Assembly: GCA_905178155.1 (NCBI GenBank)
Contig: CAJINV010000003.1
Location: 956,968 to 1,020,967 of the forward strand
Reading direction: 5' to 3'
Origin: Amoebophrya sp. A120
Taxonomy: Eukaryota > Protista > Dinoflagellata
Length of the DNA: 64,000 nt
Positions 22,737 through 58,031 of this stretch are shown here, piece by piece. Position numbers and translations under genes: made by a program. The notes beneath the pieces are model-generated. The model saw nothing but the letters and a program-made list of their open reading frames with translations, did no database searches and was not told the origin of the DNA. The first letter of the stretch is position 1. Each line of letters opens with the position of its first letter.

Positions 22737-23380
22737 GATTGTCGTGAAGGTCCAATCAGTACTAGAGCTAGTGGTCGTGGTCCCTCATGATCATGTTGGA
22801 CGTTGATGTTGAGCTCACATGCGTCCTTCTGTGGGAAATCCGTTGAAAGGTTCCGCTCGACAGTTCGTGAGTCTCTCTTCTGACTCTCGACTTCTGGAGC
22901 ATTAGCTTTATCAGTTTCGTTCGAGTCACTTCGTATTCTCATTCAGCCGTTCGTTGCCGTTCTTGTAACAGGTGCAAGAAGCGCAATATCGTCCCGGTAG
23001 TGGTATCGACAAACGACGACTGGTACCATTATCTGCAGTGCCAGAAACCAAGGAGATGATGCTGAATACGGAGCTGCCTTTACAAGAATTTCCATTTCAT
23101 TTTTTATGCGTGAAGAAGGTTAACGTACGTCATTGAATCAGACAGAGCTTGACTTTGACTTTGTTCATCTTGCACTACTTTTTTACACAACAACTATGTT
23201 AGCAGTGGCGAAACCTGCACAGAAAAATGACTGTGCGCGACAGGGGCGGAAGCTGCGCACAGGCGGTTGCAGTTGCTGACTCTCGATTTGTTTCCATAAT
23301 TAACATCGCCCGACGAGGATGCTGCACCTCCACCTCCATCCGGGAGCTGCAGCCGCGAGAGTACGAGTAGAAAAAGCCGC

Positions 23381-26300
23381 TCATATTGCATGGTACGCAG
23401 TTCCTCCAACTTCAACCCGAGGTGCCCGCACACTCACAAACACGAGAGTGCATATGGCGCCAAACGCGGCGCCCAGAAAGGCCGGGAAAAAAACGCCGTG
23501 CTGGTCGACAAAGGTGGTCCTCGTACTAGTGTGCTCCGCCGAAGCCGCCAAATTGCTGACAGCAGCGGAGGTAATGTGCGTGGTCTCTTTACTATTTTCA
23601 GCTAAGGCATGCTCATGCAGAGGATCTGCACCGGGACCGGCACTAGCTCTCGCAGCTGCTCCACCGGGAGAAAATGATGATCTTCGTGCAGCGACATCCG
23701 ACCGAGATGAGTCTTTCTCTTCCCACATCTTCACAAACTCCTCGTAGGTCGCCGGGTTGAAGGCCGCGGGCAGGACGTACTTGGGATTTGGCACGTCGTT
23801 CGCCCCCGTCATTTCCAAGTAGGCGCTTGGGTAGCCGAGGAAGCTGCCGAGCCCCGTTGCCTCGGTGTTGATGAATCCGCATCCTGTGGAAAAACGTCCA
23901 GCCCAGCACCCACCCAGAGTTGCCATGCACAATCAATGCAGCGAAAAACCTGTCATGCTTGATTCCCACAACCTCTGGATTTGTCTTGCAAAGTTCCCAT
24001 CTTGTTGACAGACTATGTGGTCATGGTGCGGACATTTTTACTCAGGATAACCCGTCGTTGTACTTTACCATCAGCTCGTCCGCAAGGTTATGCATTGCAA
24101 AACCATTGCGCAACAACTAGTAGTCATTGCATTACATGACTACTTACTACTCTACAAATTTGATCGCTTAGCATTACAAATGAAATTTGTTATGCTGCTG
24201 TATTACCTTAGCCAGGAGATTTGTCGTGCATAGATGCAATCACCACGAGTGCGATTCTTTTGCGCAGAGCATAGAGGTCCCACCAGTCCGCTACGACCTT
24301 GTCGTGCAGCTCAGCCTGCGCCGCATCGATCGTGAGCGCTTCGTTCTTGCTGACTTGTGGATGCGTGCGTATAAACGTGTCGATCTTCTGTTCCCAAGAC
24401 CGCACGCGAGGCATAACCTCAAAGTTCATTCACATTCATTTTGCTTTGTAAACATTAAGTATGCCTCTGCTGGTGCGGCGCCAGAGGAGTACAGGTAAGA
24501 GATATTAATGCCTGATGAAATCAATGCTCAGTAGCCTCATCTATGCAAGAAGCCAGCATCGGCTCCTCGTCATTGTACTTCATTTCAATTCAAAAGGAAC
24601 GCACTAAACTATGCGCACAAATTTTCTTCTTTATACATCTTCGTTCTCCATGTGCTCGTAGTTCCATTCCATTAGATTCGCAACGAGATTGAAGGCCCAC
24701 CACGCACTCTTGCGGTCCACCTTCCACCTCGTCCCCCGTTGGAGTGAGGCACCGAGCGCCGCGGAAACCTTCACAGAAGTCGACGTGGGTGCTTGTTTTT
24801 CGTCCTCGTCGTTCAATGTTTTAATTTTCATCTCCGTTGTTCGGCGCAGGTCTTTCTCTTCCGGGACGAACAGGGGCAGGTACACACTGGAGGCGGGGGT
24901 ATCCGGCGCGAACCACCCGCGAGTGGTTTTTGTCAAATCATGTTTGATGTTCTTGCCGGCCTCCTTAAGTTCTGGCTCGGCTGCTGCAAACGAAGACCCA
25001 ATCCACGCGTAGGTGGTCCTGGGTATGGAGATCGCGCGCGCGAATTGCACGTGCATCGCGACCGCGGCGTGCCCCCGCTCCAACCGGTTCGGGCTCTGGA
25101 AGGGCCCCGCGACAACGCCCTTGCGCAGGTCCAGTGGCGTGCCTTCGTAGTGGTCGCGGTGGAGATCCTTCACGGCCTGCTCTGTCAGCTATGAGGGTGC
25201 ACAACGCCCTTTCCCCCTCATTTGTATGGCATGAACAGCAATACAGACACCAGCACACGTGGAGTGTATGCATGACAAATTTATGTACCTAATGAATGTA
25301 GTAGTGTTTGGGCTTCCGTAATTTGTCATGCAAAGCATGCCACAAGGCACCTACACTAGACTACTGGATTTTGGGTTTTGCATGACAAGTGAGGGAGAGG
25401 GAGAGTTGTGTACTCTCATATCAGCTTTCTCGACACCGGGACCGAGAACGGCAGGCGGGTGTTGTCGGTGGGGGGCAGGTTATCAAATGCAAATATGGCT
25501 GGGTCTGGAAGATTTGGGTGTTTGTCATGCAAATTGTACATGACCCACGATGCTTGTGATGCATTCTCTAGCATCACAGCCCTCGCGAAGGCTTTCTCAT
25601 GCCTATCCTGCATGAGAAATGCCCGATCCGGGTGGCACAAATCTGAGCACCTTTTGCTGGTCATGCAATAGAGTTTTTTGTATGATCGAGAGTTAGCATC
25701 ACAAATCCTATTCTTCCAGACCCAGACATACTTGCACTTGATACAGGTCGTGCAGCTGCAGCTCGCGCATCAACCCCGGGTTTACCAGGTTGTACAGCCG
25801 CCAGATGCGCCCGGTGATGTACAAAGGGATGGGCGGGAGTTCCGGAATGTAGTGGAACGACCGCACGTCCTCGCCGAACGTGCTGGTAAAGTCGAAGGGC
25901 GCCGGGGCGTTTTCGTCCTCCTGCAGCGGCGTCCACAGCCTGTTCTCCATCGCCACCTGTTTGATGTTCGCGCTGCACAAAATGTTGTCCTGCTTGGAGG
26001 AGCTGGTCTGTGCAGAACCCGAGGACGACGGGAAAACACACGTCTGGATGTCGCGGATGATGAAATTGTTCGCCACGGTAGCACATCAAAAAAAAAAACA
26101 TTTTTGTGTCTCGGAGGAGAACTCGGTCTGGAAGCAAGAACCGCCATCATGCAGCACGACATGAGTCCTATAGGAACCAGATCATTCAACATCATCAAAA
26201 CACTTTCTGGTCGTGTACTACTACTACTCAGCCGAAGATTACGTTCACGACGTCGACACTAAGTCTAACGCCGCAGACCAAGAATTTCGATTGTTCTTTG

Positions 26301-27803
26301 CGAATCCATTGAATACAGATAGCAGGTGGACGCCATAGAATCCAAATGCATCTTCATGTTCATGCGCACATGCAGAAGTAGGCTCACTAGAAATGAGATG
26401 ATGTTGCAGATGAACAACTCGCGGTCCTACTGCGAGCCGAGCTCCCGGAAAAATGGGGCACGATTCCACCAGAGAATGTCGAGTATGGCGTTCTCAAATG
26501 TTCGTTACATTCTCAGCTGTTACATGATTTGCAATGCAAAAGCACAATCAAAATCGACACGATCAAGCTGCTTCGCATGACAAATTCTCGAAGGGCCCAA
26601 CAGGCTGAGAATCTGTGCCAGATCTGTCATGCAAGACGCGCAAGGTCACCCCTTTCACTTTTGCCATTCTTGCAGCACAAATTCATGTAACAGTTGAGAA
26701 TGTAACAGTTGAGAGCGCCATATCGAGACACACAGATTTGTAATGGACATACGGCGAAGTGGTCGTCTGGCACCCTCTGCGCCGCCCAGACAGCCGATTT
26801 TTTTCCGTTCGACAGGACGTGGAAGATCCACGCTTCTTTGCCGTCAGCGATCTGCAAGGATTCGCCTGCGCCTGGTGGTCCCGGGTCTTCGCCATAAAAA
26901 CCGTGCTTCACCTGACGGTGGGAGAGGGAATTCATGTAGAAGTTCTGACTCGTCTAGTTGTAGACTAACAAGAAAGTGCTTGTTGCTCTTCGTTCCACAT
27001 CCTCATTTTGATTTTTCTCCCGAGGCCGAGCTTTCATCATGACCTAGTATTTATTGCAAATGCAATGCGTTTATGCATATAGTACGAGCGCGAATAGGTT
27101 GGGTTGACACAACTCAAACAACACAACCAGATTGATAAGTACACAAGTGTACTATAAATTGCATCTCTGCTGACTTTCTCCTTCTACTTCTAGTACTTAC
27201 CGCCAAGTCCCCCATGGTGTGGATTGCACACCGTGCTGTCGCACATCGCTCCATTGCGATTTGGGTGAGAATCTTGAGCCCGAACAGGGCCCCGCTCTCG
27301 TAATCCGTAAAGAGTTTCGCGCCGCAGGTGCTTTCGCCGAAGGCGAGCCCCTTTTCGTTCAGCAATCCGTACGCTCCATCGTAGTACCCAAACGTGGTCG
27401 CTTCTGGGTCGGCCTCGATGTACCCAAGGATTTTCGTGACCTTCGTGCTGTCCGCCCGGAGATCCGCCTGGTTGGGAAAGTACATCGGCGCGTCCGCGGG
27501 ATCGGACGTGACCATGCGCGGATAACTCATCAACTGTAGCGGCACAGGACGTTTTCCATCCTTGTACCGGCGGGGCGGCACCCACGTCACCCGCGTGTCA
27601 CAGGTGCTGCAATCCACCGTGTGTGACACCATCGTGTTTCCAAGTTCCGTCGCGTCTCTCCCGATCGCAACGGAGGTGCAGGCCTGGGTGAAAAGCGGAC
27701 CATTCTCACCCCGCAAGAACGCGAGGAAGAATGTGAGCAAGGCAGAAGCAGAACCAGAACGACCCCGTTTGTGGCTCTTGGTTGTACAACGACTGAGCGT
27801 CAT
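23381..27803 (-). CDS. Peptidase C69 (dipeptidase A/secernin-like Ntn hydrolase) with C-terminal TM; exons 27803-27201, 26911-26752, 26075-25744, 25475-25421, 25184-24637, 24417-24274, 24083-24050, 23874-23381 (789 aa)
   Basis: A|CTSVAIGRDAT..MVSHTVD, NEKGLAFGESTC, IAMERCATARCAI, WAAQRVPDDH, RDHYEGT, RAISIPRT, SAWWAFNLVAN; exon sum 2370 nt is divisible by 3; two GT-AG introns plus five TIR/TSD introns. Confidence 0.9.
23880..24049. mobile_element. Introner family D (170 bp) in the C69 gene
   Basis: TIR catcctgtggaaaaacgtcc / tatcctgagtaaaaatgtcc; TSD atccg/acccg; removal gives KYNDG|FINT. Confidence 0.8.
24089..24273. mobile_element. Introner family C, diverged (185 bp), in the C69 gene
   Basis: TAT...ATA ends; TSD aaggt/gaggt; removal gives WWDL|ADELMVKY. 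Confidence 0.8.
25190..25420. mobile_element. Introner family E (231 bp) in the C69 gene
   Basis: TIR tatgagggtgcacaacgccctttccccctca / tatgagagtacacaactctccctctccctca; TSD tcagc; removal gives SRKL|TEQAVKDLHRDHY. Confidence 0.9.
25481..25743. mobile_element. Introner family B (263 bp) in the C69 gene
   Basis: TIR tatcaa(a/g)tgcaa..tg.ctgggtctggaaga; TSD caggt; removal gives HDL|PPTDNTRLPFSV. Confidence 0.9.
26079..26751. mobile_element. Older degenerate introner containing a nested element (C69 gene)
   Basis: TA ends, weak TIR sharing tgtgtctcg, residual duplication cgg; removing 26076-26751 gives DDHFA|VANNFIIR. Confidence 0.6.
26484..26722. mobile_element. Introner family A (239 bp), nested inside another intron
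   Basis: TIR tatggcg(t/c)tctcaa..gttacattctca.ctgttacatg; perfect TSD tcgag (26479-83, 26723-27). Confidence 0.9.
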
Positions 27804-28404: not shown

Positions 28405-31400
28405 TTACTGTTCAATAAACAGTCGTATCCGACTGAGCACGTTCTTGTTCACCGAGCGTGGCTTCTTGGCCGGGTCAAATTTCCCTTTTGTCCGCTGTTT
28501 TTCCAACATTTTTTCTTTCAAAACTTTGATCCATTCTGCGTCGGTTTTGTGCGGGAAGCGCCTTATCAGGTCGCGCCACGAGCGGAATTCTAGTACCAGC
28601 TGCTCCACCGCCTCCTCCCCGCACTGGTCGATGTGGCGCAACATTCGCCCAAAAATCTGCCGCGTCTGCAGGTCCGCGGTCTTCTTCGCAGTTCGCGCGA
28701 ACTCTTCGTAGGTGTAGTACCCGCCGCCCTCGGTGCCGGTTATTTTATGATGATCTTTTTCTTTGTTCGGAGACGAACTAGGTACCGCAGTACCAACTAC
28801 GTGGCGAGCCTCGACGGGATTAATTGCTACGGCAGATGAAGATCCTGTTTGCTGCTCACGGGGGTCCTGGAGTTTTTGTACGCTTGTCGTCAGGCTCTCA
28901 AGTAGGGCGTGGGTGTGCTCCGGATTTTGCGTCCGACAAACCCGGATTCCGGAAATAAACTGCGTGTGCACCAGGGCCGCGCAGATGGTCGAATGCGGCA
29001 AGCCACGGTCGAAACCGAACTTTTTCGCGCCGCCGGCCTTCATCTCCCAAAAGCACCTTTTGCTGCATTCGACGAGGTAAAAGAGGCGAACGAGGTCCTG
29101 CGGCATTTTCAGAAACCGCCGCTTCTGTTCGTTGTACCGCCCGTCGCGGATACTGGAATCCAAATCCGGAACGGACTTGCGCTCCAGCAGAAAGCCCGCG
29201 AGCAACTCGTTGCTTTCGCTCGCGCCGCCGCCGCGGGGGCTTCCCGTCGCTTTATTGCTCATCTCGTCGTCTCGCCAGATCCAGCACATGTCTCCCAGCG
29301 GCAAAGCGCGCATCTCCGACGTGTCGCTCAGAGATGTGCTCTTGAAAGCGCGCTGCTCGCGGGTGTCCGAAAGCAGCACTAGAGTCTGGTGCGAGTTCGC
29401 TGGCTTCCGGCACCCGCGAAAGTAGAAGCGCGTTGTCCCCTATCGCAACAAAAAAGTGTTACAGTTACACATTGTGTTGCAGGCCAAGCAAGACAGACAA
29501 GCTCTGTCATGCCGGATATGCATAGGAGCCTCGTTTCAGAGGTGTTTTGCCGTAGGATTTCTGCATTACAAGTTTTCTCTCTCATGCAGAGAAATTTGTG
29601 TTGTTGAACTCACTACAAATGTGTAAACTGTATACACTTTTTTCGTGGGATATCCCAGCGGCAGCGGCTCCTGCTGAGGCGATGGACTCCTGCAACGATA
29701 GATGTGCTGGGGAAAAATTGCGGCTAGTTGTAGTTCCCGAGGGAGGTGGTGGAGCCGAGATGTAGCTCTTGTCGACCTTGGCACCAAAAGCAAATCCGCT
29801 GCTGCCCGCAAACTGCGACGTGGTAGTAGAGCTAGAGGCAGCTGCTGTTCTTGCAACTCCAAGAACTCCTGTGGTCACACTCGTCTCCGATGCTATAATA
29901 AGATTTTTGCCTCCAAAGGTAGAACCGGAGGCCGTCGCGGAGGAAAAGAAGGCCGATGAAAAAGTCGCGGAAAACCCTATGACGCGCTCAGGTGTTACAA
30001 TCTCAAGCGCTTCAATAGAAGAGTCTGGATGTTGTATTGCATGACCACGAGCATGACAGACTCGCACAGCACGCGTCATCCACCTTCTGCAATACAAATA
30101 TCGCCAGATTCTAGTAGGGTTTTGGATTCCAGCACAACTTGTCATGCGCAATCCTGTGGGAGTACGTAGGATAGATCATGCATTTCGTTCTTGAATCACA
30201 GAAGATTGCCAGTATTCTCTTGTAACGTTTGAGATTGTAACCGTTTGAGCAGGTCGTAAACCCAGCCTGCTTCGCGGTAGGTGCCGCTGGTGCGGTGGCG
30301 GCGGTCGTACTCGAAAAGCCGGAAATCTGCATCTTCGAACCGGCTGCAACAGCTACTGCGCCAGTTGTGTCATTCATAGGTTGCAACGTCAGCGCGTTCT
30401 GATTGGAAGATGCGGATGCGGTACCTGGTGGTGGTGGTCGCGAGGCCCGTAGACGGGCAATCAATTCCGTCGTGGACGTGGACTATGCATTGCAAATATG
30501 TGTTCTGGGTCTGGAAACTTGTGATGCAAGGAAGGGAATGGTGAGCACACTGTAATGCTACTCCCGCGCTGCCAAGCATGACAAGTTTTTCCGTGGTGGT
30601 GGTTCTGAGTTGCGTATCCCACATGGGAAACTAATTTCATTTTTGCATGACACCAGGCGAGAGGAGCTCATTCCGGCCTCGCAATACAGAGCTCACAGTT
30701 AACATCACATGCCAGACAAGCAGAAGCATGACAGACCTTGTACATCTACCTCCAGACCCAGACATATTTGTAGTTGATATGGACGTTAGAGGAAGCTGAG
30801 CAGCGGGTGATTGAAGCATGGGCGTACCATCAGGGCTCGTGGTCACGTGTGCTCCTGCTGCTTTATCACGATCGGCGGACTGAAAACTAGAAAATGACGC
30901 AGGGTCAGCTGCGTGGTCCTCTGTGTACATACGCCGCTCCAACTGTTGTGCCACCTGTGGCTTTGGAACGAACAGTTCCGCTCCTGGGAGTTGTGGATGA
31001 GAGGTCGGATTCGTAGTTTGATATCCTCCTATTAATGTTCCACTTCCGTGCTGCCGATGCTGTTGTTGCTGAACTGCACTGGAAGTTGTTGGCGCCCCAC
31101 TGGTACTAGGTATCGCTCGCTGGTGCCCAAAACTTGATGTCTGGGGCGGAAAGCCGTGTGGTGCAAAGTTGTAGCTCGTCTGCGGAAAGCCCTGTGGTCC
31201 GCGGTCATTCGACTGGTGCTGTCCGAAGCCCGGCCCAAAGTTGTTCCCACTATGCATCTGCCCGTTGTTCATGAACCCGTTGTTGAGTGCCGGCGACGCG
31301 TTAATATTGTGTTGCTGTTGCTGTTCATCTTGATGCACGAAGCCGAATACAGCACGACCGGTGTTCTTTGGGCCACCAGGCTCGTCTAGTTGCACCTGTG

Positions 31401-33700
31401 GTCCAGACGACGACGTCGGAGGTTGTGGCTGGTGCTGCTCCAGAACGGGGGAAGTGAGAATCATCTGCTCGTCTCCGCTTGCTCCGGGCGCGGCTGGAGA
31501 GAAGTTGTGAAAGTTGTTATTTACCTGCCCGAATGAAGATCCCGCCGCTGCGGAGAAAGCACCACCAGTGCTGCCCACTGGCTGCACGGCCGGAGAGAAT
31601 TGCGACTTTTGTCCAAATGCAGGACCACCACCAAAAAACGCGGGAATGCCACTTCTAGAGGCTGCTGGTCCTGCGAAACCTCCGGTGAAAGACGACGCGA
31701 AGCCAGATGAGGAGGAACTACTAGATGCTACAGTATTCTTGAATCCAATTGCAAACTGCGAGTTCGATGTACTATTTCTTGCAGTCGTGTCGAACGACTG
31801 AACATTGCCCGTTGTGTTGTAGTTGAACTGCGAGAACTGTGAGGACGCAGAACGCTGCGGCTGCAAATCGGTATGATCAACGACATGGTTGGCATTATTC
31901 GCATGATTCGCACTTTTGAATTTGCTCACGCTCGTTCCTGTTCCTGACGCGGCCGCAGAGTTCGTCAGACCCGCACCAGAAGGCTCGAACGAGGTCCCCG
32001 AAGGGGCCGCTCCCCCGCGTAAAGGGCCTTTTACTACGACCGGAGCCAGAAGCCGTTCGACCAAGCTAGCAGTGCTTCCAGAAGCAGGTGCGGCTGGTGG
32101 GGCTCCTGCGGTCGGTCCATCATTTCCGTTTCTTTCAACTCGCATTCGCTTCAACGGCGGTGGTTCCGCCGCATAAAACTGCGAGGAGGATGACGGGGCA
32201 GCAAGAGCTACACTCGACGTTGAGCTCCCGGATGTTGAACGGAAATTATAGTGCGGGTCAGTTTGTTGTACCAGTTGGGATGAAATGCCAATGCGCCGCT
32301 CCTCTTCTTCCGCGAGTGATAGCTTGATGGCCCTTTGAAGGTCCTCTTCCTCACGTGCGGCAGCTGCAGCAAGGCCCACCACGTAGTTCTGATTTCTGTC
32401 ATCGAGTTGAGGTGGAACAAGTGGAACTACACCGACACCGTCTTCTTGCTGGACCACATTTTTAAGGCCGTCGTCGTGGTCTACTGCTTTATCAACAAAT
32501 AACTATCAAATGCAAAAGTGTCTGGGTCTGGAAGAATGGATGTTTGATGTCATGCTTGTCTGGCGTGACTCTTGAATCTGTCATGCACGTTACCCAAGCG
32601 CTCCACTTTTCTGTCATGCAGGAACGCAGTTTGTCATGCAGAATAGGCAACACCTAGAAGCGCAGAAACTTGTCATGCTGGGCCAGCACTTGCGGCCTCA
32701 TCATGGTACGCCACCCAGCATCACAAGTTTTCAGACCCAGACATTTTTGCATTTGATAATAACGGCGGTGCGACGAGGAAACCTCCACCATCGTCGGAAG
32801 ACGAGGAGGTATCTCCGGCCTCATCCTCTTCCGAGTTAAAGTCTTCTATCAAATGTAAAAGTGTCTGGGTCTGCTGGAAACTTGTGATGCTGTGTGGCGT
32901 ATCATGAGGAGGCCACAATTGCTGGCTCAGCATGACAAGTTTCTGAGCTTCTAGGTGTTGCCTATTCTGCATGACAAACTACGTTTCTGCATGACAGAAA
33001 AGTGGGGCTCTTTGGTAATGTGCATGACAGATTTAAGAGTCATGCCAGACAAGCATGACAAACTAGCATTCTTCCAGACCCAGACATTTTTACATTTGAT
33101 ATCTTCGTCCTCCGTACCATTATCCTCCTCATTCTCCGAGGGCACGACCCCGGACACCTGACTGTCGGGACCAGGACGAAGAACCGCAGTAGATTTAATA
33201 TTTCGCTTCTTAGAAGAGCCCCCTGCTCCGGTCGTGTTCGGCTGAATTTCCCCGGATTCCACGCGTCGCTGGAGGTCCTGAACGTTCGCGCGACCCAGCA
33301 GCAGCTCGGGGTCGTTCTTGAGCGCCTTTGTGAGCCGCGCCTTCACTTTAGTTCGCCACTTTCGCAGCTGCTTGACGCTCTCCGCAGCACCATCGGAGGA
33401 AGTAGAAGTTGCGGCGGCACCATTGTTCATCTTGGCGGACGAGGCCGTCGCTTTATTTTTATCGTGCAGAACCCGCTCGAAGTCCGCAGAAAAGGTCTTG
33501 CCCACACCCGTCAGCCACTGGGCTTGCACGCTGGTATCCAAGGCGAGAGGGTAGGCTTTCAAGCTCTTCACCACACCCCGGACGTTTCTCTTGGCGTCGT
33601 AACTGACGGCCCCCTTTTCCTCAAAGTGCGCGAGGAAAGCCGCATTTGCGGGGTGCGTGCGAACATTCATCTGAGCGGCGTTTTTCTTTTTCGAGGACAT
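28405..33700 (-). CDS. MUS81: Structure-specific endonuclease MUS81; exons 33700-33102, 32841-32759, 32498-30780, 30478-30259, 29972-29653, 29435-28405 (1323 aa)
   Basis: N-terminal HhH (PANAAFL..KSLKAYPLAL..WLTGVG); ERCC4 domain VLLSDTRE, LPLGDMCW, LLERKSVPDLDSSIRDGRYNEQKRR, FYLVE; C-terminal QIFGRMLRHIDQCG; exon sum 3972 nt is divisible by 3 after removing five introners. Confidence 0.9.
29441..29652. mobile_element. Introner family F (212 bp) in MUS81
   Basis: TIR tatc..a..aaaaaagtgt..aca; TSD tcccc/tccca; homologous throughout to 56436-56656; removal joins into VLLSDTRE. Confidence 0.9.
29978..30258. mobile_element. Introner family A, diverged (281 bp), in MUS81
   Basis: TIR ta(t/c)gac..gctca...gttacaatctcaa; TSD aaccc; in-frame join AGF|SATF. 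Confidence 0.8.
30484..30779. mobile_element. Introner family B, diverged (296 bp), in MUS81
   Basis: TIR containing caaatatgt..ctgggtctgga; TSD tggac; in-frame join. Confidence 0.85.
32504..32758. mobile_element. Introner family B (255 bp) in MUS81
   Basis: TIR tatcaaatgcaaaa.tgtctgggtctg; TSD ataac; in-frame join PPL|FVDKAV. Confidence 0.92.
32847..33101. mobile_element. Introner family B (255 bp) in MUS81, opposite orientation to 32504-32758
   Basis: TIR tatcaaatgtaaaa.tgtctgggtctg; TSD tcttc; join EDED|FNSEED. Confidence 0.92.
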
Positions 33701-34360
33701 CGTGGTGCCAATAAAGTTCTTCGGCGTACTGTGCTGGACGAAATTCTACATTTTCTGAAATATTCTGTTCATCATCTCAGTCGGAACATACTTGTGAGGA
33801 CGCAAAATAATGGAAATAGGAATACTTACTTTGCGAAAAGGGGTTTGCGATTGAATTGTTCTTTTTGTCCCATCAAATATTACTTGAGCGTTGAGGTTTT
33901 GAAAAGCGATATATCTGCACGCACTTCTTCCTAACGTTGATCGTGGTGTCTGCCTGTGTCAGATACGTTAACGACCTTGCTTTCAATCACGACGACAAGC
34001 GTGAGGATCTTCGCGTCCGCTTTGCGGCCTTTTTGCGGAGACATGACGGATCAAGGGAAGAATTCCATGTCGCACTTTATTTTCAACACAAAGAGAGAAG
34101 CGAACAAAATTCTCATCGTCAACTACGCTCAAATAAGCCAGCACACGATACCCATTAGCCTTCAGGGTGCGCTTGCCCCTGCGTGCCGCGGCTTGCACGC
34201 TTTACTAGTATGTAGATTTTTATCATCAGTTGGGAGGTAGAGGCTCTGGTTCTTTACCTCCAGATAAAAAGCGGTTGTTTAAAACGGCAGTGCTTCGAAA
34301 GATCCTTGCTCGTCAACAAGCACAAGCTATCGACCTTTTGCTTGCGTTCTTTCGAACTAT

Positions 34361-35032
34361 TGATTCACATTTCGTTTCCGGTCGTTCCAATCATACACAC
34401 AGAATAATGGTCTGCGATTTCAGTAGCGTTTTCAAAATCGGCCTTGTGCAGTTGGAACGGAAGATCACGACAATCATGATTCTCCGGTTCACAAACTTTC
34501 ATGAGCGGCCTCAAAGTATTAGAAACACCAGTGATTTTCTCATTTTCTCGGAGCTGCCCTCGAAAGAGTAAACAATAAAGATAAACTTGCTTCAAGTGCT
34601 TGTGCACGTAGACGTAATTAAAGATATTAAATGCGCCGGGATTATCTTCTGTGTTTTTTACGTCTACCTCTACTGGTACTGTTGTGTTTGCATGATTCGC
34701 ATTTCGTTTCCGGTCGTTCCAATCATACACACAAAATAATGGTCTGCGACGAGTTCAGTAGCATTTTCAAAATCGGCCTCGTGCAGTTGGAACGGAAGAT
34801 CACGACAATCATGATTCTCCGGTTCACAAACTTTCATAAGCGGCCTCAAAGTGTTAGAAACACCAGTGATGTTCTCATTTTCTCGGAGCTGCCCTTGAAA
34901 GAGTCAACAATAAAGATAAACTTGCTTCAAGTGCTTGTGCACGTAAAAATTATTTACTTAAAGATAAATGCGTCGGGATCATTAACTTCTGTGTTTTTCA
35001 CGTCTACCTCTACTGGTACTGTTGCGTTTGCA
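34361..35032. repeat. Diverged tandem duplication (~332 and ~340 bp units)
   Basis: tgattc(a/g)catttcgtttccggtcgttccaatcatacac... starts at 34361 and 34693; both units end gttg(t/c)gtttgca. Confidence 0.9.
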
Positions 35033-38000
35033 AAAGTGGTCCCGGCTGATCGTGCCGCCGCGGCCGCGCGTCCGTGCCACTTTGCGGCCGCGTATCATGA
35101 GAGTGCACAACTCCCCCTCCCCCTCATTTGTGATGCAAAATGTCTAATTTACACCTTGCCTCTGGGCACTGTTAGCATGACAAGTTCTCGCAGCCCAAAT
35201 AGCACTACACTCCTGTCCAACTTTGTCATGCAAAACCTGTATTCTTGCTGACGCTTGTATTGCCGTTCATGCAACACAAATGAGGGGGAGGGGGAGTTGT
35301 GCACTCTGATACCGCGCTCGATCAGACGCGAACCGTTTGGCTCGATCAGACGCGAAGCGTTTCTCTCTGCTCCCTGCTCTTCGTGTCCTCTCAGTGGACT
35401 GGGTGTTGATGGTCTCCTGCTCCTCTCCGGCTCCTCCAGCAACTAGTACATCAGTACCCACCAGCACATCTGGATCCAGACCACCCTCCACCTCCTCACC
35501 AGCTTCATCTGCGTGTATTTTTGGCGCGGCTGGCCGTTCTGTCTCCTGCAAATAATATCCTTCCCTCCTCAGCTCTGGGACCGCATGCTCGTAGAAAAAA
35601 GCTCCCCAGGATCGCACGCCTGTGGACTGTTGGAAGTTCGTTCTCCACCCAATCCTCCTCGATGGTCGTGTTTGCCTTTGCTCAAGTACTCCTCCAGTTT
35701 GCGTCTCCAAGGCTCTGCCAGCGGTACTCCTCCGGTTTGCGTCTCCAGTCCAAGCAGCACTTACCACCGGCCCCAACGCGAGATGGACGCTATAGGCCCT
35801 CCGCAGCTTAGCGGCGACCTCAGGCGCATGATTTTTATGTGCTTCCTTTATTACTTCCAGGTACTTTTTCGCCTGTTCGACGACGAAGCTGAGTAGCTTT
35901 ATGTAATTCGGCTTGCCTTTCTGCCGTGTCACGGTTGAGAGCAAAACTCTTGAGGCGCGAAAAGTGCCAACGTCTTCATCAGGGTTTAGGCCCAGCCAAG
36001 CATCGTAACGCAGCAACGTCATGTCTTGGCTTCGCTCTCTGCCCTCTCTTCTTGGCTCAGCGAGCCCCGGACTCGGATGCGATAGCTGCCTCCTCGACGA
36101 CGACGCTCCAGGAGCACCAGCAGCCGGCGCAGCATCTTCAGGCCCTGGATCATCGCGCACTACCACTAACTCGAGTTCTCTATGTGTTGCTCTACTAGGT
36201 GCATCTTCCCTGTCTTTGTCTTCCTCCACATGATTCGCGGCAGGCCGCTCTTTGTAGTACGTGGTGTTGATGGTCTCCTGTCCGGTTGCGCCGTGCTCCT
36301 CCTGATCATCTCTTTCTCTGTGTCCGTTCGCAGCGTTCTTCTCAGTCGTCGATCTGGCTTCCTGCTCTCCAGCCGCGCCACCAGCCGACAGCACACGACC
36401 ACCGCCCTCAGTCTGCGCTGAGTCGCCAGTCGTTCTTGATGGGGGAGATCCCCATCGCCATCCCGACGTCGTTGAGAGGGTCGGCGTTTCGCTTCTTGAT
36501 GTCGCGCAGCTGGTAGCGACCAGCATCTTCTGATGATCTTGATCATGACATGCATCATCATCGACTCCCCCGCGCGCTCCTCGTCTTCTAGCTCTACGTG
36601 CACGACGACCCTCCTCCTCTTCCTCAACATGACTCTCAGCGGCCGACGCGTGCTCCTCACAGCTTGTAGAAGCTGCTTATCGTGCTTCTCCAACTAGTGC
36701 ATCAGCATCCACATCACCTGGATCCGGAGTGCCCTCCACCTCCTCATCTTCTGCGTGTTGCAAATCATATCCCTCTGCCGTCAGCCTTGGGAGTACATGG
36801 CCGTAGAAAAACTCTCCCCAGGATTGCACGCTTGGTATCGCCTGTCGGAAGGTCCGACTCCCGATCGACTTCGTGTTCGTCACTATTCCTTCTTGCTTTA
36901 CTGCCTTTTGCGATGCCATGGCGTTTCCCCAAGCTTTCCTTACCAGCGGTTTCATCGCGAAGTAGACGCTACGGGGCCTCCGCAGCTTAGCGGCCACCTC
37001 TGGCGCATGATTTTTATGTGCTTCCATTACCACTTCCAGGTACTTTTTCGCCTGTTCGACGACGAAGCTGAGTAGCTTTATGTAATTCGGCTTGCCTTTC
37101 TGCCGTGTCACGGTTGAGAGCAAAACTCTTGAGGCGCGAAAAGTGCCAACGTCTTCATCAGGGTTTAGGCCCAGCTCCGAGGCATCGTAACTTTTCAATT
37201 TTTTGTCTTGGTATTGCTCTCTGCCCGTTCTTCTTATTGGCTCAGCGAGCCCCGGACTCGGATGCGATAGCTGCCTCCTCGACGACGACGCTGCAGGAAC
37301 ACCAGCAGCCGGCGCAGCATCTTCATTTTTCCGCAGAGGAAAATATCCTTCCGCCGTCAGCGTTGGGACCACATGGTCGTAGAAAAATTCTGCCAAGAAT
37401 TGCACGCGTATCGACTGCTGGCAGTTCATTCTGGCAGCTCTAGTACAACGCCTCCTCGCGAAATGCGGGCCCCAAGCCTTGTTCACGAGACGTTTCACCA
37501 CGATGTAGACGACCAGGGGGCTCCGCAGCCCGACGGCGCCCTCGGCCGCAGGGTTTCTATGTGCTTTCATTCTCCACCAGTATTCTTTCGCATATTCGAC
37601 GGCGAAGCTGAGCAGCTCTTCGTAATTCGGGTAGATATAATTATCGGGCTGTTCTTCCCAGTCGGGCCGTGTCACGCTCATATCAAATGCAAAAGTGTCT
37701 GGGTCTGGAAACTTGTGATGCTGGGTGGCGTATCATGAGGAGGCCACAAGTGCTGGCTCAGCATGACAAGTTTNATGTAATTCGGCTTGCCTTTCTGCCG
37801 TGTCACGGTTGAGAGCAAAACTCTTGAGGCGCGAAAAGTGCCAACGTCTTCATCAGGGTTTAGGCCCAGCTCCGAGGCATCGTAACTTTTCAATTTTTTG
37901 TCTTGGTATTGCTCTCTGCCCGTTCTTCTTATTGGCTCAGCGAGCCCCGGACTCGGATGCGATAGCTGCCTCCTCGACGACGACGCTGCAGGAACACCAG

Positions 38001-45649: not shown

Positions 45650-48474
45650 TTACTGCACCGTAACAACTTCTTCCACCACTTCCCCCTCCTTCTCGACCTT
45701 CTCGATGAATGCCTCCAGTGTGGGGGTTTTTGCCTTTTCCGCAGACGAGGTCGCTTGTTCCGCACAACTGGCTTCTTCCTCCACCTTGCTCGCTTCAACA
45801 TCTTCATGCCCGGCCGCGGCGACGCCCGCCTCGGCCGCTTCGCCTTCGGGTCCTTCGCCCGCATCTTCGACTTGTTCCTTCTTCTCCTCTTCCTCTGCAG
45901 AAACGCTCGACGTGGTGGCAGGCACGGCACCCGCGGCGACCTCGGCCGCCCGCGCGGGCGGACTGAGGATGTCCGCCGCGGTTTCCTCCGGAATGACGGA
46001 TTGCTTGGAAGACATGACCGACCCGCCGAACAGGCTGGAGAACTTCTTGTAGGCGGCCACGTCCTTCAACGGCTTGCGCACGAAGGACGCCATCCGCTTA
46101 TGAATTACAAAAGTACTAACGTACTAGGATAAATTGCAATACAAGTTGGCTCAGCATTTTTTCAAATTTAATTTGTAATGCGGAGTTGCCTTAGGAGCTA
46201 GTATTTGTAATTATACAAGAGGTGAACACGCTCCACACGTAAAAGGTTAAGCTTGTCGCTTTTCGCTTCTTTGTCTTTCTATTCGCGCTGTAACGTTACA
46301 CTTGGGGCCTTAACGTTACACTTGGGGCCTAATGCATAAATGCAATTAGTACGAGTACGATACTTTTGCGCAGGATACCGCTTCGCCCGACGCGATTTCG
46401 GCGACAGCACCGGGGCCGCGTCCTCGTCCTCCTCGGCCGTGGTGGTCGCGGCCTCCAGAAACGCGGTGGACGCCGGCTTCGTCTTGTTCGAGGGCGGTCC
46501 CTCGCCCGAAGACGCTTCCTCCGCACTTGCCGACGCCGGCTTCTTATCCTGTGCAAAAGTATCGCACTCGTATTGCAATCATGCATATACAAATCTTTTT
46601 GTTTTTGTTAAGTCAAATACGCAGTACAAATTTTATTTCTCATGCTGAGGAAATTTGTAGTGCATTTATACGAGTACGAGACTGTTGCACAGGATACTTC
46701 TCGCTCGCCGCTTCGTCCGCACTGGAGCTGCTCGGTTGGCTTTCCACCGAACTCTTGGATCCCTTGTTGTTGGTGCCAGTCTCTTGCAGCTCCTTCGAAT
46801 CCTTGCTGGCCCGTTTCGAACCCTGGTATGGAATGGATTGCGGATTTTTGGTATAATTGGGAGTTCTTGATGAGGTTGAGGGAAACTAGCAGAGATAACA
46901 TCAAGTTTAGCTGTTTTTATGCTGCAGTAGAGCCGGAGATCGCTCACGCGCGACGCTGCTCCACGTTTTGAGCAAACGCGAACAGCAGCAGCGTTCACAC
47001 TCTATTGTTCTTTTGAAAAAGATATTGGAATACATCCAACCAGTTTGGACGTAAAAAAAAACAGAATCTTGATCTTCAACTTCACCTTGTTTGGATTTAG
47101 AAGCAACAGATATAAAAGAAATTCTTTTTGTACCGGCTTGGAGCCGTTCCCCGGCTGCGCGGTTTTGTTTTGCGCGGCGACAGCACCCTGGTTCGGGCGG
47201 GTCTGCTTCATCTGGCGGCGGGTCTGCTTCTGCTGGCTGTTCGCGTACTGCTGCAACTTTTGGTCCTCGGAGGATTTGGAGGAAGACGCAGCTGCCACGC
47301 CGGCCGCTGGAGTTGCTGCCCCCGGACCAGCGGTCGTGGCGTCCCGGCTCTCGCGGGTACCGCGGTACTTGAACCGCCAGGTGTTCCGCACCACTGGGCG
47401 CACGCCATTTCCATTGTTGGTGGTGGCCTTGGACAGGTCGTGGTGGCTGGAAGCCGCTGCAGGAGCTCCGGACTGGTCATAGAACGAACCGTGCTTCATC
47501 ATGCCGCGGTAGTGGTCGGACTTTTCTTTGCTGCCGTTACGCGAGGTTGACCCCGGCGGCCCATGATAGGAACTACTACCGTACCCGCCGTAACTGTAGC
47601 CGTAGTACGAGTCGTAGCCGCCCGCCGGCGCGCCGCCCCAGGCATGATGCGGTGGTCCCGCCGCGGGGGCTTTGCTCCCGGGGGGCGTGTATCCAGTGCT
47701 CGCGGTACCGCGCTGCGTCCACTGCTCACCGTGATACCAACTGGCCATCGGATCCATCCACGGGCCGTGGTTCGGATCCACGATCACCACCGGAGAGGTC
47801 GTCGGCTGCGGATGCACCATCACGGGCGCCGGGGGCGGAACGGGGACGCGGGACGAGTGTTTATGGCGTTCTCAGACGTTACATTCTCAACTATTACATG
47901 GATTTGTCATGCAAATTAGCCATGAATATCGACACGACCAAGCTGCTTCGCATGACAAGTTCGCGACTTGCTAGATAGCATGAGAATCTACGCCAATAAA
48001 CCTGTAATGCAAAAGGCGCAATCTTTTTTTTTTTTTTTCAATTTTGCCACTCTTGCATTGCAAATTCATGTAACAGTTGAGAATGTAACATTTGAGAATT
48101 CCATAGTTTTCCGCGGTTCCTTTGGAGCTGTGCGACGTGGTCGTGCCCGAGAAGGGGTGCGCCGGTTGGTGCACAGCCGCTCCTGCCTGCGGGTGCGGCG
48201 GCATCGGCGCGACAGCCAGGTACTGCGGACCACCCGCCGCGCCGGCGAAGAGGTGGTGCGCGGAGGTCCCGAACAGATTCGGGTCCAAGGCCAGATACTG
48301 ACTCTCATGGTACAACGGTTGATGGTGCGTCGCGGCAGCAGTCGTGTACACCAGCTGCGGGTGGTGCATCAGTACCTGGTGATGGTGGCTCGTCGGGCCC
48401 GCAACGCCCGGGGGCGGCATCAACACCTGCGGAGCCGCTGGTACCATCTGGTGCACCGCCGGCGGTGGCGGCAC
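45650..48474 (-). CDS. Hypothetical low-complexity (Pro/His/Gln-rich then acidic) protein, 5' end incomplete; exons ..48106, 47856-47134, 46885-46697, 46539-46378, 46093-45650
   Basis: In-frame joins after removing three introners and one GT-AG intron (46886-47133). Confidence 0.65.
46099..46377. mobile_element. Introner family C (279 bp, with an internal 20-bp tandem duplication at 46291-46330)
   Basis: Ends tatgaattacaaaagtac / tatcctgcgcaaaagtatcg; TSD ccgct; join AKR|MASFVRK. Confidence 0.88.
46545..46696. mobile_element. Introner family C (152 bp)
   Basis: TIR tatcctgtgcaa.agt.tcg.actcgtat; TSD cttct; closely similar to 56231-56387. Confidence 0.92.
47862..48105. mobile_element. Introner family A (244 bp)
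   Basis: TIR tatgg..ttctca.a.gttacattctcaact.ttacatg; TSD gtgtt/gtttt; join AEN|SSRVPVPP. Confidence 0.9.
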
Positions 48475-54209: not shown

Positions 54210-55267
54210 GATTTGACGTGTACTTGCGCGACAGTTTGAAGCTGTCTAGCGGACTACTCGCGAGGAGAAAGCAAGTTTTTATGTCCGAAGCGACAGCGAA
54301 GTAGTGTTCAAAAAACGGGGAAGAACTGTTCTAGTCAGTTAAAGATTACACGGAAATTCCAGATGGTGCCACAAGCCAACGAAGTGAATTTTACCAGGAG
54401 CAAGGAGGAAGCTTACATCCGCTTGCAACGCAGTCTACCAGTTGCAGTTCCGCCTCGTTCGACGAAATGCACGATAATCAAATATCGAGGCGGGACGAAG
54501 TGGCACGATGAAGATCCCTAGGCTTTTTGAGTCCAACTCCAACCCAAGAACGTGCTTCATCATAGTATTTGTCAGGGACAAAACTCACTTACCAGCCGGA
54601 TGCTGACGATTACGAATTGCTCTACGTGCGTGGAGATTTTCTTCCAGAGCAGACAGATCCATACGATTGCGATTAATACGAGGAAGACGGGAATTTCTAA
54701 ACGAGCAGTACGAGAGGGAGAGTCGGAGTCCTCATACGGTATAATAATTTTCGTTTCCACCAATGAACGAAGTTCACAAAGTCACGAGTGAAGGTCAGAG
54801 GGTTCTCAGCTGCCGGTCAGTTGTACGACTACATTTAACATTTGCAGTGCCTCGGACGAAGGGTAAGGATGCTGACGAACGAAATGACATCTACCGCAAA
54901 GGCCATTTTATTTGCAGGCTGTAATCGATAGAATGCAGGGGGGTCTGTTTCACGACAAACCCAATCAGGTTAGCGTTGGAGCGCTTCTATAATGTTTTAT
55001 TTCATGTTGAAAAACGCGCTATGGGCTTTAGATAGAAATGGCCGGCTGTTTCTGCCGGATAACGGCAAGATGAAAGGAGCTGCCACGTTTAGAGCCGTAG
55101 CCGTTTGGTCTTGGTGACCTCATTACATACAACTGATCGTTAGATCTGCCGCAGGTGGTTCGACAAAGTTTGTCGGAACTGACGGCGCTACTCCGACAAA
55201 ATCTGTCGGAAATCGAGGGAGCTTGATCCTAGCGCGAGGCGACAATCTTCAGTACCTGGACGCAGCG

Positions 55268-58031
55268 CTAGTACATCGAGTTGTATTTCAGTTTGTCCGG
55301 TTGGTATCCCGGCAGCGTCTGCACCGCCGCGGCAATGCTTTCCCGGCCGACAAATTTGCTGCAGACGAAGAACATCTCCCGCGACTCGTCGCGGCTCGCG
55401 GGCGGTTTGAAGGAGTGCACCGTTTTGAAGCGCGAGCGCAGGTACATTTTGAAGTTGGTGGTTTCCGGGCCGTACATCATTTTCACCACGAAGCTGCCGT
55501 CCAGCCGCTATCCTATGTAAAAACGTCCTCGCCCCATAGTCAAGATGGGGAATCGGCTAGACAAATCCACAAGTTTTGGCTGTCTTGCATGACAAATTGC
55601 GATTCGTAGTGTAGTGCTGTTTGAGCTAGCTCAGCAGCATCACAGATCTAGCGCCTCATGCGGATTGGAGCATGACAAATTGCAAAACACGAATAGCAAA
55701 CGCTTCTCATGGGGCTCCGCATGAGAAACATTTTCAGCATGCAGATTTGCATTGCAACTATGGGGTGGGGACGTTTTCAAATACGATAGCCGCAGCACGC
55801 GCTCCATCATTTCGCCCGCCGCGAGGCAGAGCTCCGCGGATATCCTAAGTAAAAACGTCCCCACCCCAGAGTTGTAATGCAAATGCGCAATGACAGGAAC
55901 ATTTGTAATGCGCATCCCCATGAGAGGCATTTCCAATCGTGATTTGGCATTTGTAATGCTGTAAACAGGATGAGAAACTGGCTTTCTTATGCGGCTCTCC
56001 TTGCTAAGCACCACTATACTACAGACGGAAACTTATCATGCACAACTCCCAAAGCTTGGCGATTTGTGTTGCAGATTTACCAACTTGACTATGGGGTGGG
56101 GACGTTTTTGCTCAGGATAGCGGAATCCAGGTGGTCGTCCTGCTTCACGCCGGTGAGGCTGGGACACATGTCGGACAGCACCACGTCCACCTTCTCGCCG
56201 TTGGTGGCCCGCAGGATCTTCTCCAGCGTGTATCCTGTGCAAAAGTATCGTACTCGTTTTGCAATCATGAATCACAAATCTTTTTCTGAGCCTGAAGGTA
56301 AATCAGCATCACAGATCTTCATCTTATTTCTCATGCTGAGGAAATTTGTAATGCATTTATACGAGTACGATACTTTTGCAATTCATAGCGTGTCCGCTTT
56401 CGTGACGTCGCCCTGGATAAAGACGTGCCCCTGGTTATGCACAGAAAAAAGTGTCACAGTTACACATTGCGTTGCAAGACCAGCAAGACAGACGACTTCT
56501 GTCATGCGCAAAATGTTTGCGAGTGTCGTTTCGTGTGTGTTTTGCTTTATGATCTCTCCATCACAAGTTTTCTCCGTCATGCGAGGCAAATTGAAATTTG
56601 TGATGCTGAATTCGCTACAAATGTGTAAAAATTGTATACACTTTTTTCCTTGGATACTGGTCGTCCAAGGGATCGATGTGCAGCAAGTCCTATCGTAAGG
56701 AAAAATCCCCCCTCCCCATATCGAAACGGAATGTTTCCGAAAATTTGTGTTGCTGATTTGAGCCTTAATTCCACCTGATATCCGTAGGCCTCGTTGGGGG
56801 TCCCTCACCCCCAACACGCCGAACTTCCTCCTTCCACACGCAGCGTCGGAGGGGTCGCACGTAGCCCTGGAGGTGATAACGAGGGTGTTGCTGATTTGAG
56901 GCCACAAATCGCATTTGTCTTGCAATAAGACAAGGGTAGAAGCTTCCGCCCCATTAGGGAGGCGATTTGTCATGCTGTTGGCCCTAAAAGTGGCCCGCTT
57001 GCCATGCTGAAGAACTAGACCCATACGCCCCTGCCTAGCCTGGGGATCTGGCCGCAGTGCCTCTCTGCAATACAAACCTGATTTGTGTACACACATCCAG
57101 CATCAGAAATTCCGTTTTGATATGGGGAGGGGGGATTTTTCCTTTCGATAAGTCCACGCCAATCACCTGGGCGTGCCTCCGCGCCTCTTCGTCGGCGTCG
57201 TCCGCCAGCACCGTGCGCTCCAGCGCCACCTGCGACCAGCCCCCCGCGTAGCAGCCCAGGTCCAGGATCTTCTGGCCCTTCCGGAAGATGCCAAACCGCG
57301 AGTCGATCTGCTTCAGCTTGTAGGCCGCGCGCGTGAGGTATGGGGTTCTCAAACGTTACACTCTCAACTGTTACATGATGAATTTGTCAAGCAAAAGCAC
57401 CATCATCATTCACGCGATCAGGCTGCTTCGCATGACAAATTTGCCTAGGGCTAAATAGCACCTAAATGTGTGCAGAATTTGTAATGCTACAGGCGCAATC
57501 TCCCCCCTTTCACTTTTCCCATTCTTGCATCACAAATCCATGTAAGAGTTGAGAATGTAACAGTTGAGAACGCCATATCCGGTAGCTCTCGTTTTGGGCA
57601 CGCTTCACGTACCGGTCCGCCATCTGTCGCTGGACCCACTGGTGCACGTTGGAGGAAATGGACGAATTCTTTGACCTTCCGCTCAATTTCCCAAACCCGC
57701 GGTGACTCTGGGCGACGTGGGGCGGAGGTCGTTCTTGTGGTTGCCGCGAGTGATCGACGATGAAGAGTGGCTGAAAACAGATCCGTCGTGGTGTAGTAGT
57801 CGGGCGGCAATTTGGTGACGTTGACAAGTGCCTGGGTGTTCTTGTAGATGTAGTGGTCGTGTGTCTCATCATGATGTTGTGGCGGGCACCGGAACATAAG
57901 GTGGCAACAGCTGGAGCCACGCCATTCGTGCATGGTAACGGTGTCGTCCCGAATGGGGTCGCTGTGCAGTAGAGCTGGGAAACACAGCTCGTGGCCGCCC
58001 TACTCGTCGATGTTCCTGCAGCATGTGTCAT
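55268..58031 (-). CDS. MRM2: rRNA large-subunit 2'-O-methyltransferase, RlmE/FtsJ family, MRM2-like; exons 58031-57578, 57333-57151, 56685-56657, 56430-56388, 56225-56120, 55835-55789, 55503-55268 (365 aa)
   Basis: Reconstructed QWVQRQMADRYVKRAQNESYRTRAAYKLKQID, ILDLGCYAGGWSQVA, IGVDLLHIDPL, FIQGDVT, VDVVLSDMCP, GSFVVKMMYG, KPPASRDESREMFFVC (K-D-K-E tetrad); exon sum 1098 nt; start codon tentative. Confidence 0.9.
55509..55788. mobile_element. Introner family D (280 bp) in MRM2
   Basis: TIR tatc.tat...aaaacgtcc.c.ccccatagt; TSD gccgc. Confidence 0.92.
55841..56119. mobile_element. Introner family D (279 bp) in MRM2
   Basis: TIR tatcct.ag.aaaaacgtccccacccca; TSD gcgga. Confidence 0.93.
56231..56387. 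mobile_element. Introner family C (157 bp) in MRM2
   Basis: TIR tat....tgcaaaagtatcgtactcgt; TSD gcgtg. Confidence 0.93.
56436..56656. mobile_element. Introner family F (221 bp) in MRM2
   Basis: TIR tat.ca..gaaaaaagtgt..aca..ttacacatt; TSD ctggt. Confidence 0.92.
56691..57150. mobile_element. Introner family G (460 bp) in MRM2
   Basis: ~41-bp TIR tatcg(t/a)aaggaaaaatcccccctccccatatc(g/a)aaacggaa; TSD agtcc. Confidence 0.93.
57339..57577. mobile_element. Introner family A (239 bp) in MRM2
   Basis: ~55-bp TIR tatgg(g/c)gttctcaa..gttaca.tctcaact.ttacatg; degenerate TSD tgagg/tccgg. Confidence 0.9.

Follow-up and report, generated by a model that had tools for sequence, protein, structure and literature searches.

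Both orientations of an introner element are removed from a single transcript in Amoebophrya sp. A120, with a candidate polar rule for the cut

The stretch analyzed here (the window, 64,000 nucleotides [nt] of the dinoflagellate Amoebophrya sp. A120) carries on its minus strand a MUS81-like gene interrupted by short elements that begin with TAT, end with ATA, and possess terminal inverted repeats (TIRs) and flanking target-site duplications (TSDs) (Table 1). Deleting five such elements, each with one TSD, from this strand yields an open reading frame (ORF) of 1323 amino acids, which we call MUS81-like because of its ERCC4 domain (E value of 2.8e-16) and a subthreshold N-terminal HhH match (E value of 0.029); retention of either of two of these elements, A and B, cuts the frame to 239 or 249 amino acids. 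As a preliminary description of this stretch had stated, A and B are reverse complements of each other: A and the reverse complement of B are identical in 229 of 258 columns (89%; alignment score of 371, against 0 for the forward alignment), an inverted match that a repeat search reports over 187 nt at 91%, and both have perfect 5-bp TSDs. The peptide MQNRQHLEAQKLVML, likewise noted in that description, is indeed read on the plus strand at 32636 and on the minus strand at 32972. We rejected it as a real product, since it lies within the removed segments and represents the same non-coding DNA read from opposite strands.

Both polarities are excised from the same transcript, and the earlier claim of removal in either orientation thus stands. 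A joint from 32497 to 32758 skips 260 nt at A in three of the four RNA contig runs, and a joint from 32841 to 33102 skips 260 nt at B in all four (with a short side of only 26 letters in run X6); in runs X3, X4, and X5, individual contigs span the two joints, at a depth of 2.8 to 4.6. The length removed in both cases is not the 255 nt of the element but 260 nt, that is, the element plus one TSD, and its loss restores the frame. These contigs, assigned to RNA by an automated guess, give neither the strand nor the efficiency of removal, and the strand of the A/B transcript is taken from the ORF; on the plus strand, stop codons run through the junction region in two frames and flank it in the third. 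The piece lengths of record 17 in X4 require the loss of GT-AG introns together with TAT elements, and run X1, which behaves as DNA, holds the elements at single-copy depth (record 1 spans 23000-25240, and record 8 spans 33078-34397). Hence, the removal takes place at the level of RNA. The retained form was absent at the unique end of B in the four runs and at the 5' end of A in X3 and X5, in contigs that drop rare forms. GT-AG boundaries are obtained at none of the registers of A or B, 13 of the 184 perfect-TSD coding copies could be read as GT/GC-AG, and no target-site consensus was found among the insertion sites. Run X12 consists of raw RNA reads, 89 of which fall in the window, all as partial TIR matches and none covering an exon; 85 reads at 33070-33103 hold the end of an element of the A/B family (family B) in one transcript without exon cover, an element retained in RNA that may come from another strain.

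By their sequence, these elements are the published introner elements of A120 (Farhat et al. 2021, PMC7789003), for which the article describes, in the same organism, a TAT start and an A-stretch, short direct repeats, a length of about 240 nt, RNA support, and a proposed hairpin. The elements studied here have the TIR of that definition, with TAT, some seven variable bases, and three or more As, are repeated, are removed without GT-AG boundaries, and are bounded by a direct repeat, given there as 3 to 5 nt. They also resemble miniature inverted-repeat transposable elements (MITEs) in being short, non-coding, and present in many copies with a TIR and a TSD of constant length. For A120, Farhat et al. 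report a total of 29,850 of these elements, with border and machinery given as unknown, and in the accessible text use "orientation" only of genes. To this we add near-equal polarities, a candidate cut register, and a constraint that is polar toward the 5' end. Full-text searches and the text of that article and its supplement, figures aside, state neither an orientation nor a fixed register for Amoebophrya elements, and word searches of PMC12130899, PMC9860276, and PMC11282704 found no such statement (PMC11453091 was searched for other terms).

The expectation of the preliminary description that introner orientation relative to the host strand would be about even is borne out in a sample of 147 loci (L001-L147; 595,642 bases, partly overlapping) from a near-identical strain, selected by the TIR pattern of the wider family in 16 of 64 parts scanned. 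One tested exon from these loci matches an A120 protein at 99% identity and another has no A120 match; viral contigs gave 0 matches. A finder requiring a TIR and a 5-bp TSD recovered 369 unique elements, with 305 perfect TSDs, 55 with one mismatch, and 9 with two; it reported 202 elements in a subset of 352,677 bases and 0 once these bases were shuffled. The elements of these loci count as putative introns because their removal restores the frame. A self-trained codon model assigned a host strand to 223 of the 371 elements, the 148 uncalled ones being dropped; it placed all 17 window elements scoring at least 8 on the minus strand, but two genes of the window had seeded the model, and calls were mixed in 2 of the 38 loci with more than one call. 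The wider family includes 175 of the 371 unique elements, and its orientation relative to the inferred host strand is 46:54 (100 of the 175 copies being strand-called), while the subfamily of A, with 20 members, stands at 8:7 among the 15 called. Within-family pairs number 2904 with the same and 2907 with opposite polarity, and 19 of the 21 subfamilies have members in both orientations. Copies in the minority orientation amount to 54 of 165, with 60.9 expected at 1:1 (P = 0.06), and the most skewed groups are a subfamily at 20:8 and a family at 16:6, so that a mild orientation bias is compatible with these counts. The insertion phase of the 223 strand-called elements is uneven, at 51:70:102, with TSD bases 2 to 4 most often forming one whole codon.

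Since exactly one 5-nt TSD is lost and 5 is not evenly divisible, the two cuts must lie at unequal distances from the element. The position of the cut at A is itself ambiguous because its TSD is perfect, and copies with diverged TSDs, which reveal which TSD copy stays in the exon, were used to establish the register. At least one base of the upstream TSD is kept at the element at 29441 and at least four at that at 23880, as judged from the ends of RNA pieces compared with simulation (29435/29653 and 23873, respectively). At least three are kept at 57339, from the SYR motif shared by the A120 protein P0001, P0002, and human MRM2, and at most four at L024:882, where the A120 protein P0004 matches registers 0 to 4 but not 5. 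The RNA-inferred intron 26080-26752, if a decayed element, keeps exactly four, as it starts 1 base before TATG and ends 4 bases after U11-GATG. The sole register fitting all five cases would be N-UAU...AUA-NNNN, with a cut 1 nt before the 5' TIR and another 4 nt after the 3' TIR (the 1+4 register). As the spacers of 1 and 4 nt sum to the TSD, such cuts would allow scarless removal at any site. The nine predominant non-canonical motifs of A120 in Table S4 of Farhat et al. (PMC7789003) all have the form NT-NN; one of them is found in 37 of the 184 perfect-TSD copies at register 4, against 0 to 18 at the other registers. At L034:6619, where TSD base 5 might have been informative, no A120 ortholog was found. 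Under the 1+4 register, the uneven insertion phase corresponds to an excess of phase-0 introns. In the 39 coding copies whose TSDs differ, most of the changes at TSD bases 1 and 5 affect third codon positions (9 of 11 and 5 of 7); the numbers are small, but the share is above that predicted for a freely drifting intronic copy.

The two ends of the elements also differ in the constraint acting on them. The finder treats both ends alike, and among the 204 of 329 elements that were strand-called for this count, TIR base 1 deviates at none of the 5' ends and at 8 of the 3' ends (P = 0.008), base 2 at 1 and 5, and base 3 at 4 and 3, respectively. Over the first 15 nt, measured against subfamily majorities in 165 copies, the 3' ends carry 36 more deviations (family-stratified permutation, P = 0.011). 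Non-coding copies, taken as a control for polarity, were uninformative, with 25 of 59 oriented and zero deviations. Thus, the 5' end appears more constrained than the 3' end, and the removal appears not to be symmetric. The canonical donors in the window are GTAAGT and GTATAA, with which N-TAT agrees at +2 and +3; the invariant TIR base 1 would be the U at donor position +2 if the 1+4 register holds.

These observations bear on the proposal of the preliminary description that the recognized feature is symmetric and made up of the TIR stem, the TAT/ATA ends, and the TSD. The TIR renders the terminal ~27 nt of the A and B transcripts near-identical, and because both orientations thereby have like ends, their indifference to orientation does not require symmetric chemistry and leaves room for strand-specific recognition; any machine reading only the ends, linear or paired, would work both ways. 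The register appears polar and the 5' end more constrained than the 3' end. Separate splice signals in each orientation, which the description had taken to speak against its idea, are partly present, in that an N-UAU start and a 3' U-tract occur in both. Of the three features proposed, TSD identity and a perfect 3' end are not required: copies with mismatched TSDs at 23880, 24089, and 29441 are spliced in RNA, and that at 23880 ends in ATG instead of ATA. As for the stem, both polarities fold a long terminal one because of the TIR (z scores of -7.2 and -6.7), but selection on RNA pairing went undetected in three tests of limited power. Pair-keeping changes show no strand bias (133 G-U versus 156 A-C), private changes making wobbles and mismatches number 77 versus 97 in the TIRs and 518 versus 520 inside, and the sense duplex is stronger in 97 and weaker in 111 of 223 copies. 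Further, weakly paired copies are spliced, namely those at 24089 (duplex of -13.7 kcal/mol, with the ends unpaired in the minimum free energy fold) and 26080-26752.

Taking these findings together, we lean, by a modest measure, toward removal by a relaxed U2-type spliceosome that uses an N-UA donor and an acceptor set by distance. Non-autonomous TIR transposon copies sit in exons in both orientations, and either TIR could supply an N-UA(U) donor, the first T of the TIR corresponding to +2 as in GU. A sequence-free acceptor would then be placed 4 nt past the other TIR, possibly fixed by its distance from the TIR end via the paired stem, a U-tract lying 15 to 18 nt before the cut and produced by the A-tract of the TIR, or both, so that the element would leave the RNA with exactly one 5-nt TSD. 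In A120, nearly all spliceosomal proteins and the U2, U4, U5, and U6 RNAs are reported, with U1 not found (Farhat et al. 2021, PMC7789003); the same article gives the TIRs of the strain A25 as starting with TTA and two purines, which might be seen as resembling GTRAG. With respect to U2-type features, the elements lack GT-AG termini, would have a U at donor +2 if the 1+4 register holds, and have a U-tract by TIR symmetry.

Several points weigh against this proposal. The mechanism is read from sequence and contig joints, and the RNA support consists of four contig runs from two samples of one study. The register is drawn from five cases, three of which depend on the boundaries or lengths of contig pieces, one of these assuming a decayed element, and another of which (L024:882) compares a locus of another assembly with an A120 protein. 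Codon usage failed to identify the ancestral TSD copy, the upstream one being better at 21 of 44 mismatched positions. The polarity tests are post hoc; base 1 alone has a P value of 0.05 in the subfamily subset, the difference between 5' and 3' ends is not significant at positions 16 to 60, and no branch point or U-tract conserved specifically at the 3' end was found, positions 11 to 15 deviating in 40 of 797 cases at 5' ends and 51 of 789 at 3' ends. Hisat2 scores donor-likeness, and the predominant motifs matched at register 4 may reflect such an aligner preference and may not be independent. Those motifs were derived from Hisat2 junctions, and Farhat et al. themselves call the intron border unknown (PMC7789003). 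Finally, Euglena introns share the geometry of an inverted motif with unequal fixed spacers, and their authors favor non-spliceosomal factors (PMC12501133).

This last parallel suggests an alternative that we consider possible but rather unlikely: the UA:UA base of the TIR stem would be bound by a dedicated nuclease-ligase outside the spliceosome, similar to that of euglenids or of tRNA splicing, and its staggered cut, 1 nt upstream and 4 nt downstream of the stem, would release a circle or hairpin; this is the idea of the preliminary description with a polar cut added. The long terminal stem of both orientations is in line with it, as are the lack of a detected acceptor consensus or branch signal in the elements, the undetected U1 of A120 (PMC7789003), and the non-conventional introns of Euglena, with their inverted motif, fixed 3- and 5-nt spacers, and reported circular products (PMC12501133, PMC11282704). 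However, the complementarity of the TIRs is expected from transposition anyway, none of the tests described above detected a strand bias toward pair-keeping changes, the weakly paired copies at 24089 and 26080-26752 are spliced, and a 5' arm more constrained than its partner is not predicted by pairing alone.

Those same null results would suit a spliceosome reading only linear signals at both TIR ends, namely an N-UAU donor and a U-tract spaced evenly from the acceptor in all copies, with the stem as a by-product. An A/U tract is present in about 90% of the coding copies (TIR positions 11 to 13, 194 to 206 of 223 at the 3' end), and the decayed 26080-26752 retains its U11 run and is spliced without AG. 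Nevertheless, conservation of the U-tract at 3' ends does not significantly exceed that of the A-tract at 5' ends, and a tract of 4 to 5 Us would seem too little to specify a single-base acceptor; we regard this version as improbable. Excision from DNA in a transcribing stage, as with ciliate internal eliminated sequences, or element-free alleles behind the contigs, would yield the exact loss of the element plus one TSD and gains some room from the automated assignment of the runs to RNA, but is very improbable given the X4 contig lacking GT-AG introns and TAT elements together, the single-copy depth of the elements in DNA run X1, the abundance of element sequence in the RNA runs, and the polar 5' constraint that tracks the transcript; as these are judged from 15 listed joints of 234, rare joints in DNA may still occur.

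Comparable introns are known from several other lineages. In Polarella glacialis, introner-like elements give rise to introns whichever way they are inserted (10.1101/2020.10.14.339549), as do introners of Aureococcus and Micromonas (Huff et al. 2016, cited through the review PMC10228655). Like those of Polarella and Aureococcus, the A120 elements carry a TIR and TSD and are lost with one TSD. In contrast, the reports on those taxa describe G-type donors, AG acceptors drawn from the element or TSD, a required TSD consensus, and one favored orientation, whereas A120 shows no TSD consensus, few possible GT/GC-AG readings, and a ratio near 1:1. Euglenid non-conventional introns, for which a MITE origin is proposed and the mechanism is described as unknown (PMC12501133, PMC11282704), likewise combine an inverted terminal motif with unequal fixed spacers (3 and 5 to 6 nt there, and probably 1 and 4 nt here). 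They belong to an unrelated lineage, have a CAG/CTG motif, prefer a purine after the acceptor, and are reported to give circles; their signature, N3-CDG ... CH'G-N5-6 followed by R, is absent from the A120 elements, which end in TAT/ATA and have no such purine preference. The splice sites of the non-canonical introners of Fritillaria borealis likewise coincide with TIRs, which belong to non-autonomous DNA transposons, and removal is attributed to a modified U2 spliceosome (10.1101/2025.08.15.670264, PMC11282704), but these introners mostly have AG-AY ends and an exonic TAC, while the A120 acceptor is without consensus. TIR elements with integrase-like ORFs are reported in A120 (Gozashti et al. 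2025, PMC12130899) and are a possible source of the mobilizing enzyme; they concern transposition rather than removal, and their link to the family of A and B is putative.

An internal motif, T(G/C)TN(A/T)TGC, in the context AAWTTGTSATGC, recurs in unrelated families, with 91 matches in 5,176 bp of elements and 38 in 57,943 bp outside them. It is first met about 30 to 49 nt inside either end, with a spacing of mostly 31 to 33 or 39 nt and no strand bias. We rejected it as a strand-specific splice signal, given 540 forward and 504 reverse matches in 244 coding copies; these are likely to be subterminal transposase-binding sites.

Elsewhere in the window, opposite polarity recurs within single genes. 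Two FtsJ-gene elements, 55509-55788 and 55841-56119, are 73% identical in opposite polarity, and the public A120 protein lacks both. An exon of this gene is 100% identical to P0001, and deleting its six elements reproduces 351 consecutive residues of that protein, whose model is not independent evidence because it was probably derived from the same RNA data. The six elements, of five families, are packed into about 700 coding bases (gene span taken as 55250-57630), with intervening exons down to 29 nt. The preliminary description had also placed families C and E in both polarities in minus-strand genes. The opposite polarity holds for family E, the copies at 25190 and 35093 being 70% identical over 233 nt (z score of 27.2 reverse versus 4.5), and in family C it is weak for the copy at 46099 against that at 56231 (6.6 reverse versus 1.7 forward) and clearer against that at 46545 (12.0 versus 2.3); the minus host strand of the copies at 35093 and 46099 comes from the codon model rather than from RNA. 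The intron 26080-26752, with a GTATGT start and no AG, for which reason we dropped it as a canonical intron, resembles an old TAT element whose 5' arm houses a younger one (26484-26722); an inverted match of 9 nt persists, which 11 of 20000 shuffles also reached (post hoc). A duplication of 695 bp in the region 37069-38634 surrounds a lone N at 37774, comes with a truncated family B copy at 37681-37773, and has the look of an assembly artefact; the element at 38376 is missing from the paralogous repeats at 35930 and 37109, which represent near-empty sites. The finder reports zero TAT elements in positions 1-21000, which hold long plus-strand ORFs, against 22 at 23.8 to 57.6 kb, and the start of the window has an inverted repeat of 108 bp as well as tandem copies of 35 bp (63-279 and 348-458).

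Table 1. Genes, elements, and introns discussed, in positions of the window
Feature	Position	Strand	Remarks
Element 23880	23880..24049		Mismatched TSD, ATG 3' end; RNA retains the upstream TSD copy through base 4
Family E copy	25190..25420		Skipped in RNA; polarity opposite to 35093-35311
RNA-inferred intron	26080..26752	-	G-UAUG...U11-GAUG-UGCU, AG absent; probably a TAT element in decay, with the cut at exactly 1+4
MUS81-like host gene	28405..33702	-	1323 amino acids after removing elements 29441, 29978, 30484, 32504, and 32847
Element 29441	29441..29652		TSD mismatch at base 1; RNA retains the first base of the upstream copy (pieces end at 29435 and begin at 29653)
TSD of A (ATAAC)	32499..32503		Transcript-downstream copy; other copy at 32759-32763
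Intron A, inferred	32500..32759	-	1+4 register, U-UAUC...GAUA-GUUA
Element A	32504..32758		255 bp, TAT...ATA TIR of ~27-30 nt; polarity opposite to B
Middle exon	32759..32841	-	83 nt between A and B, one TSD copy counted per junction
TSD of B (TCTTC)	32842..32846		Transcript-downstream copy; other copy at 33102-33106
Intron B, inferred	32843..33102	-	1+4 register, A-UAUC...GAUA-GAAG; register from other copies
Element B	32847..33101		255 bp, reverse complement of A (89%)
Family C pair	46099..46696		46099-46377 and 46545-46696, opposite polarity, in one minus-strand reading frame; predicted from sequence
FtsJ/MRM2-like gene	55250..57990	-	Contains six TAT elements; 55509-55788 and 55841-56119 form an opposite pair
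Element 57339	57339..57577		Two TSD mismatches; conserved SYR only if the upstream copy is kept through base 3

The element class and the genome were already known, and public gene models already remove such elements, as seen for the FtsJ gene; what this analysis adds is chiefly the candidate polar cutting rule. If true, N-UAU...AUA-NNNN as a rule for both orientations and any target sequence would explain the free spread of these elements, and a single register would merge many reported splice motifs into one and fix gene annotation. Should the spliceosome be responsible, it would have dropped both G+1 and AG while keeping U+2. Should it not be, this would be an alveolate with a second splicing machine. 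It is conceivable, though on present evidence doubtful, that a second, non-spliceosomal RNA splicing system in Amoebophrya recognizes the UA base of the transposon terminal stem, cutting 1 nt upstream and 4 nt downstream of it. In that case, each insertion of these elements, whatever its target sequence and direction, would be a perfect intron from birth, and the host would encode an RNA-level transposon eraser convergent with that of Euglena.

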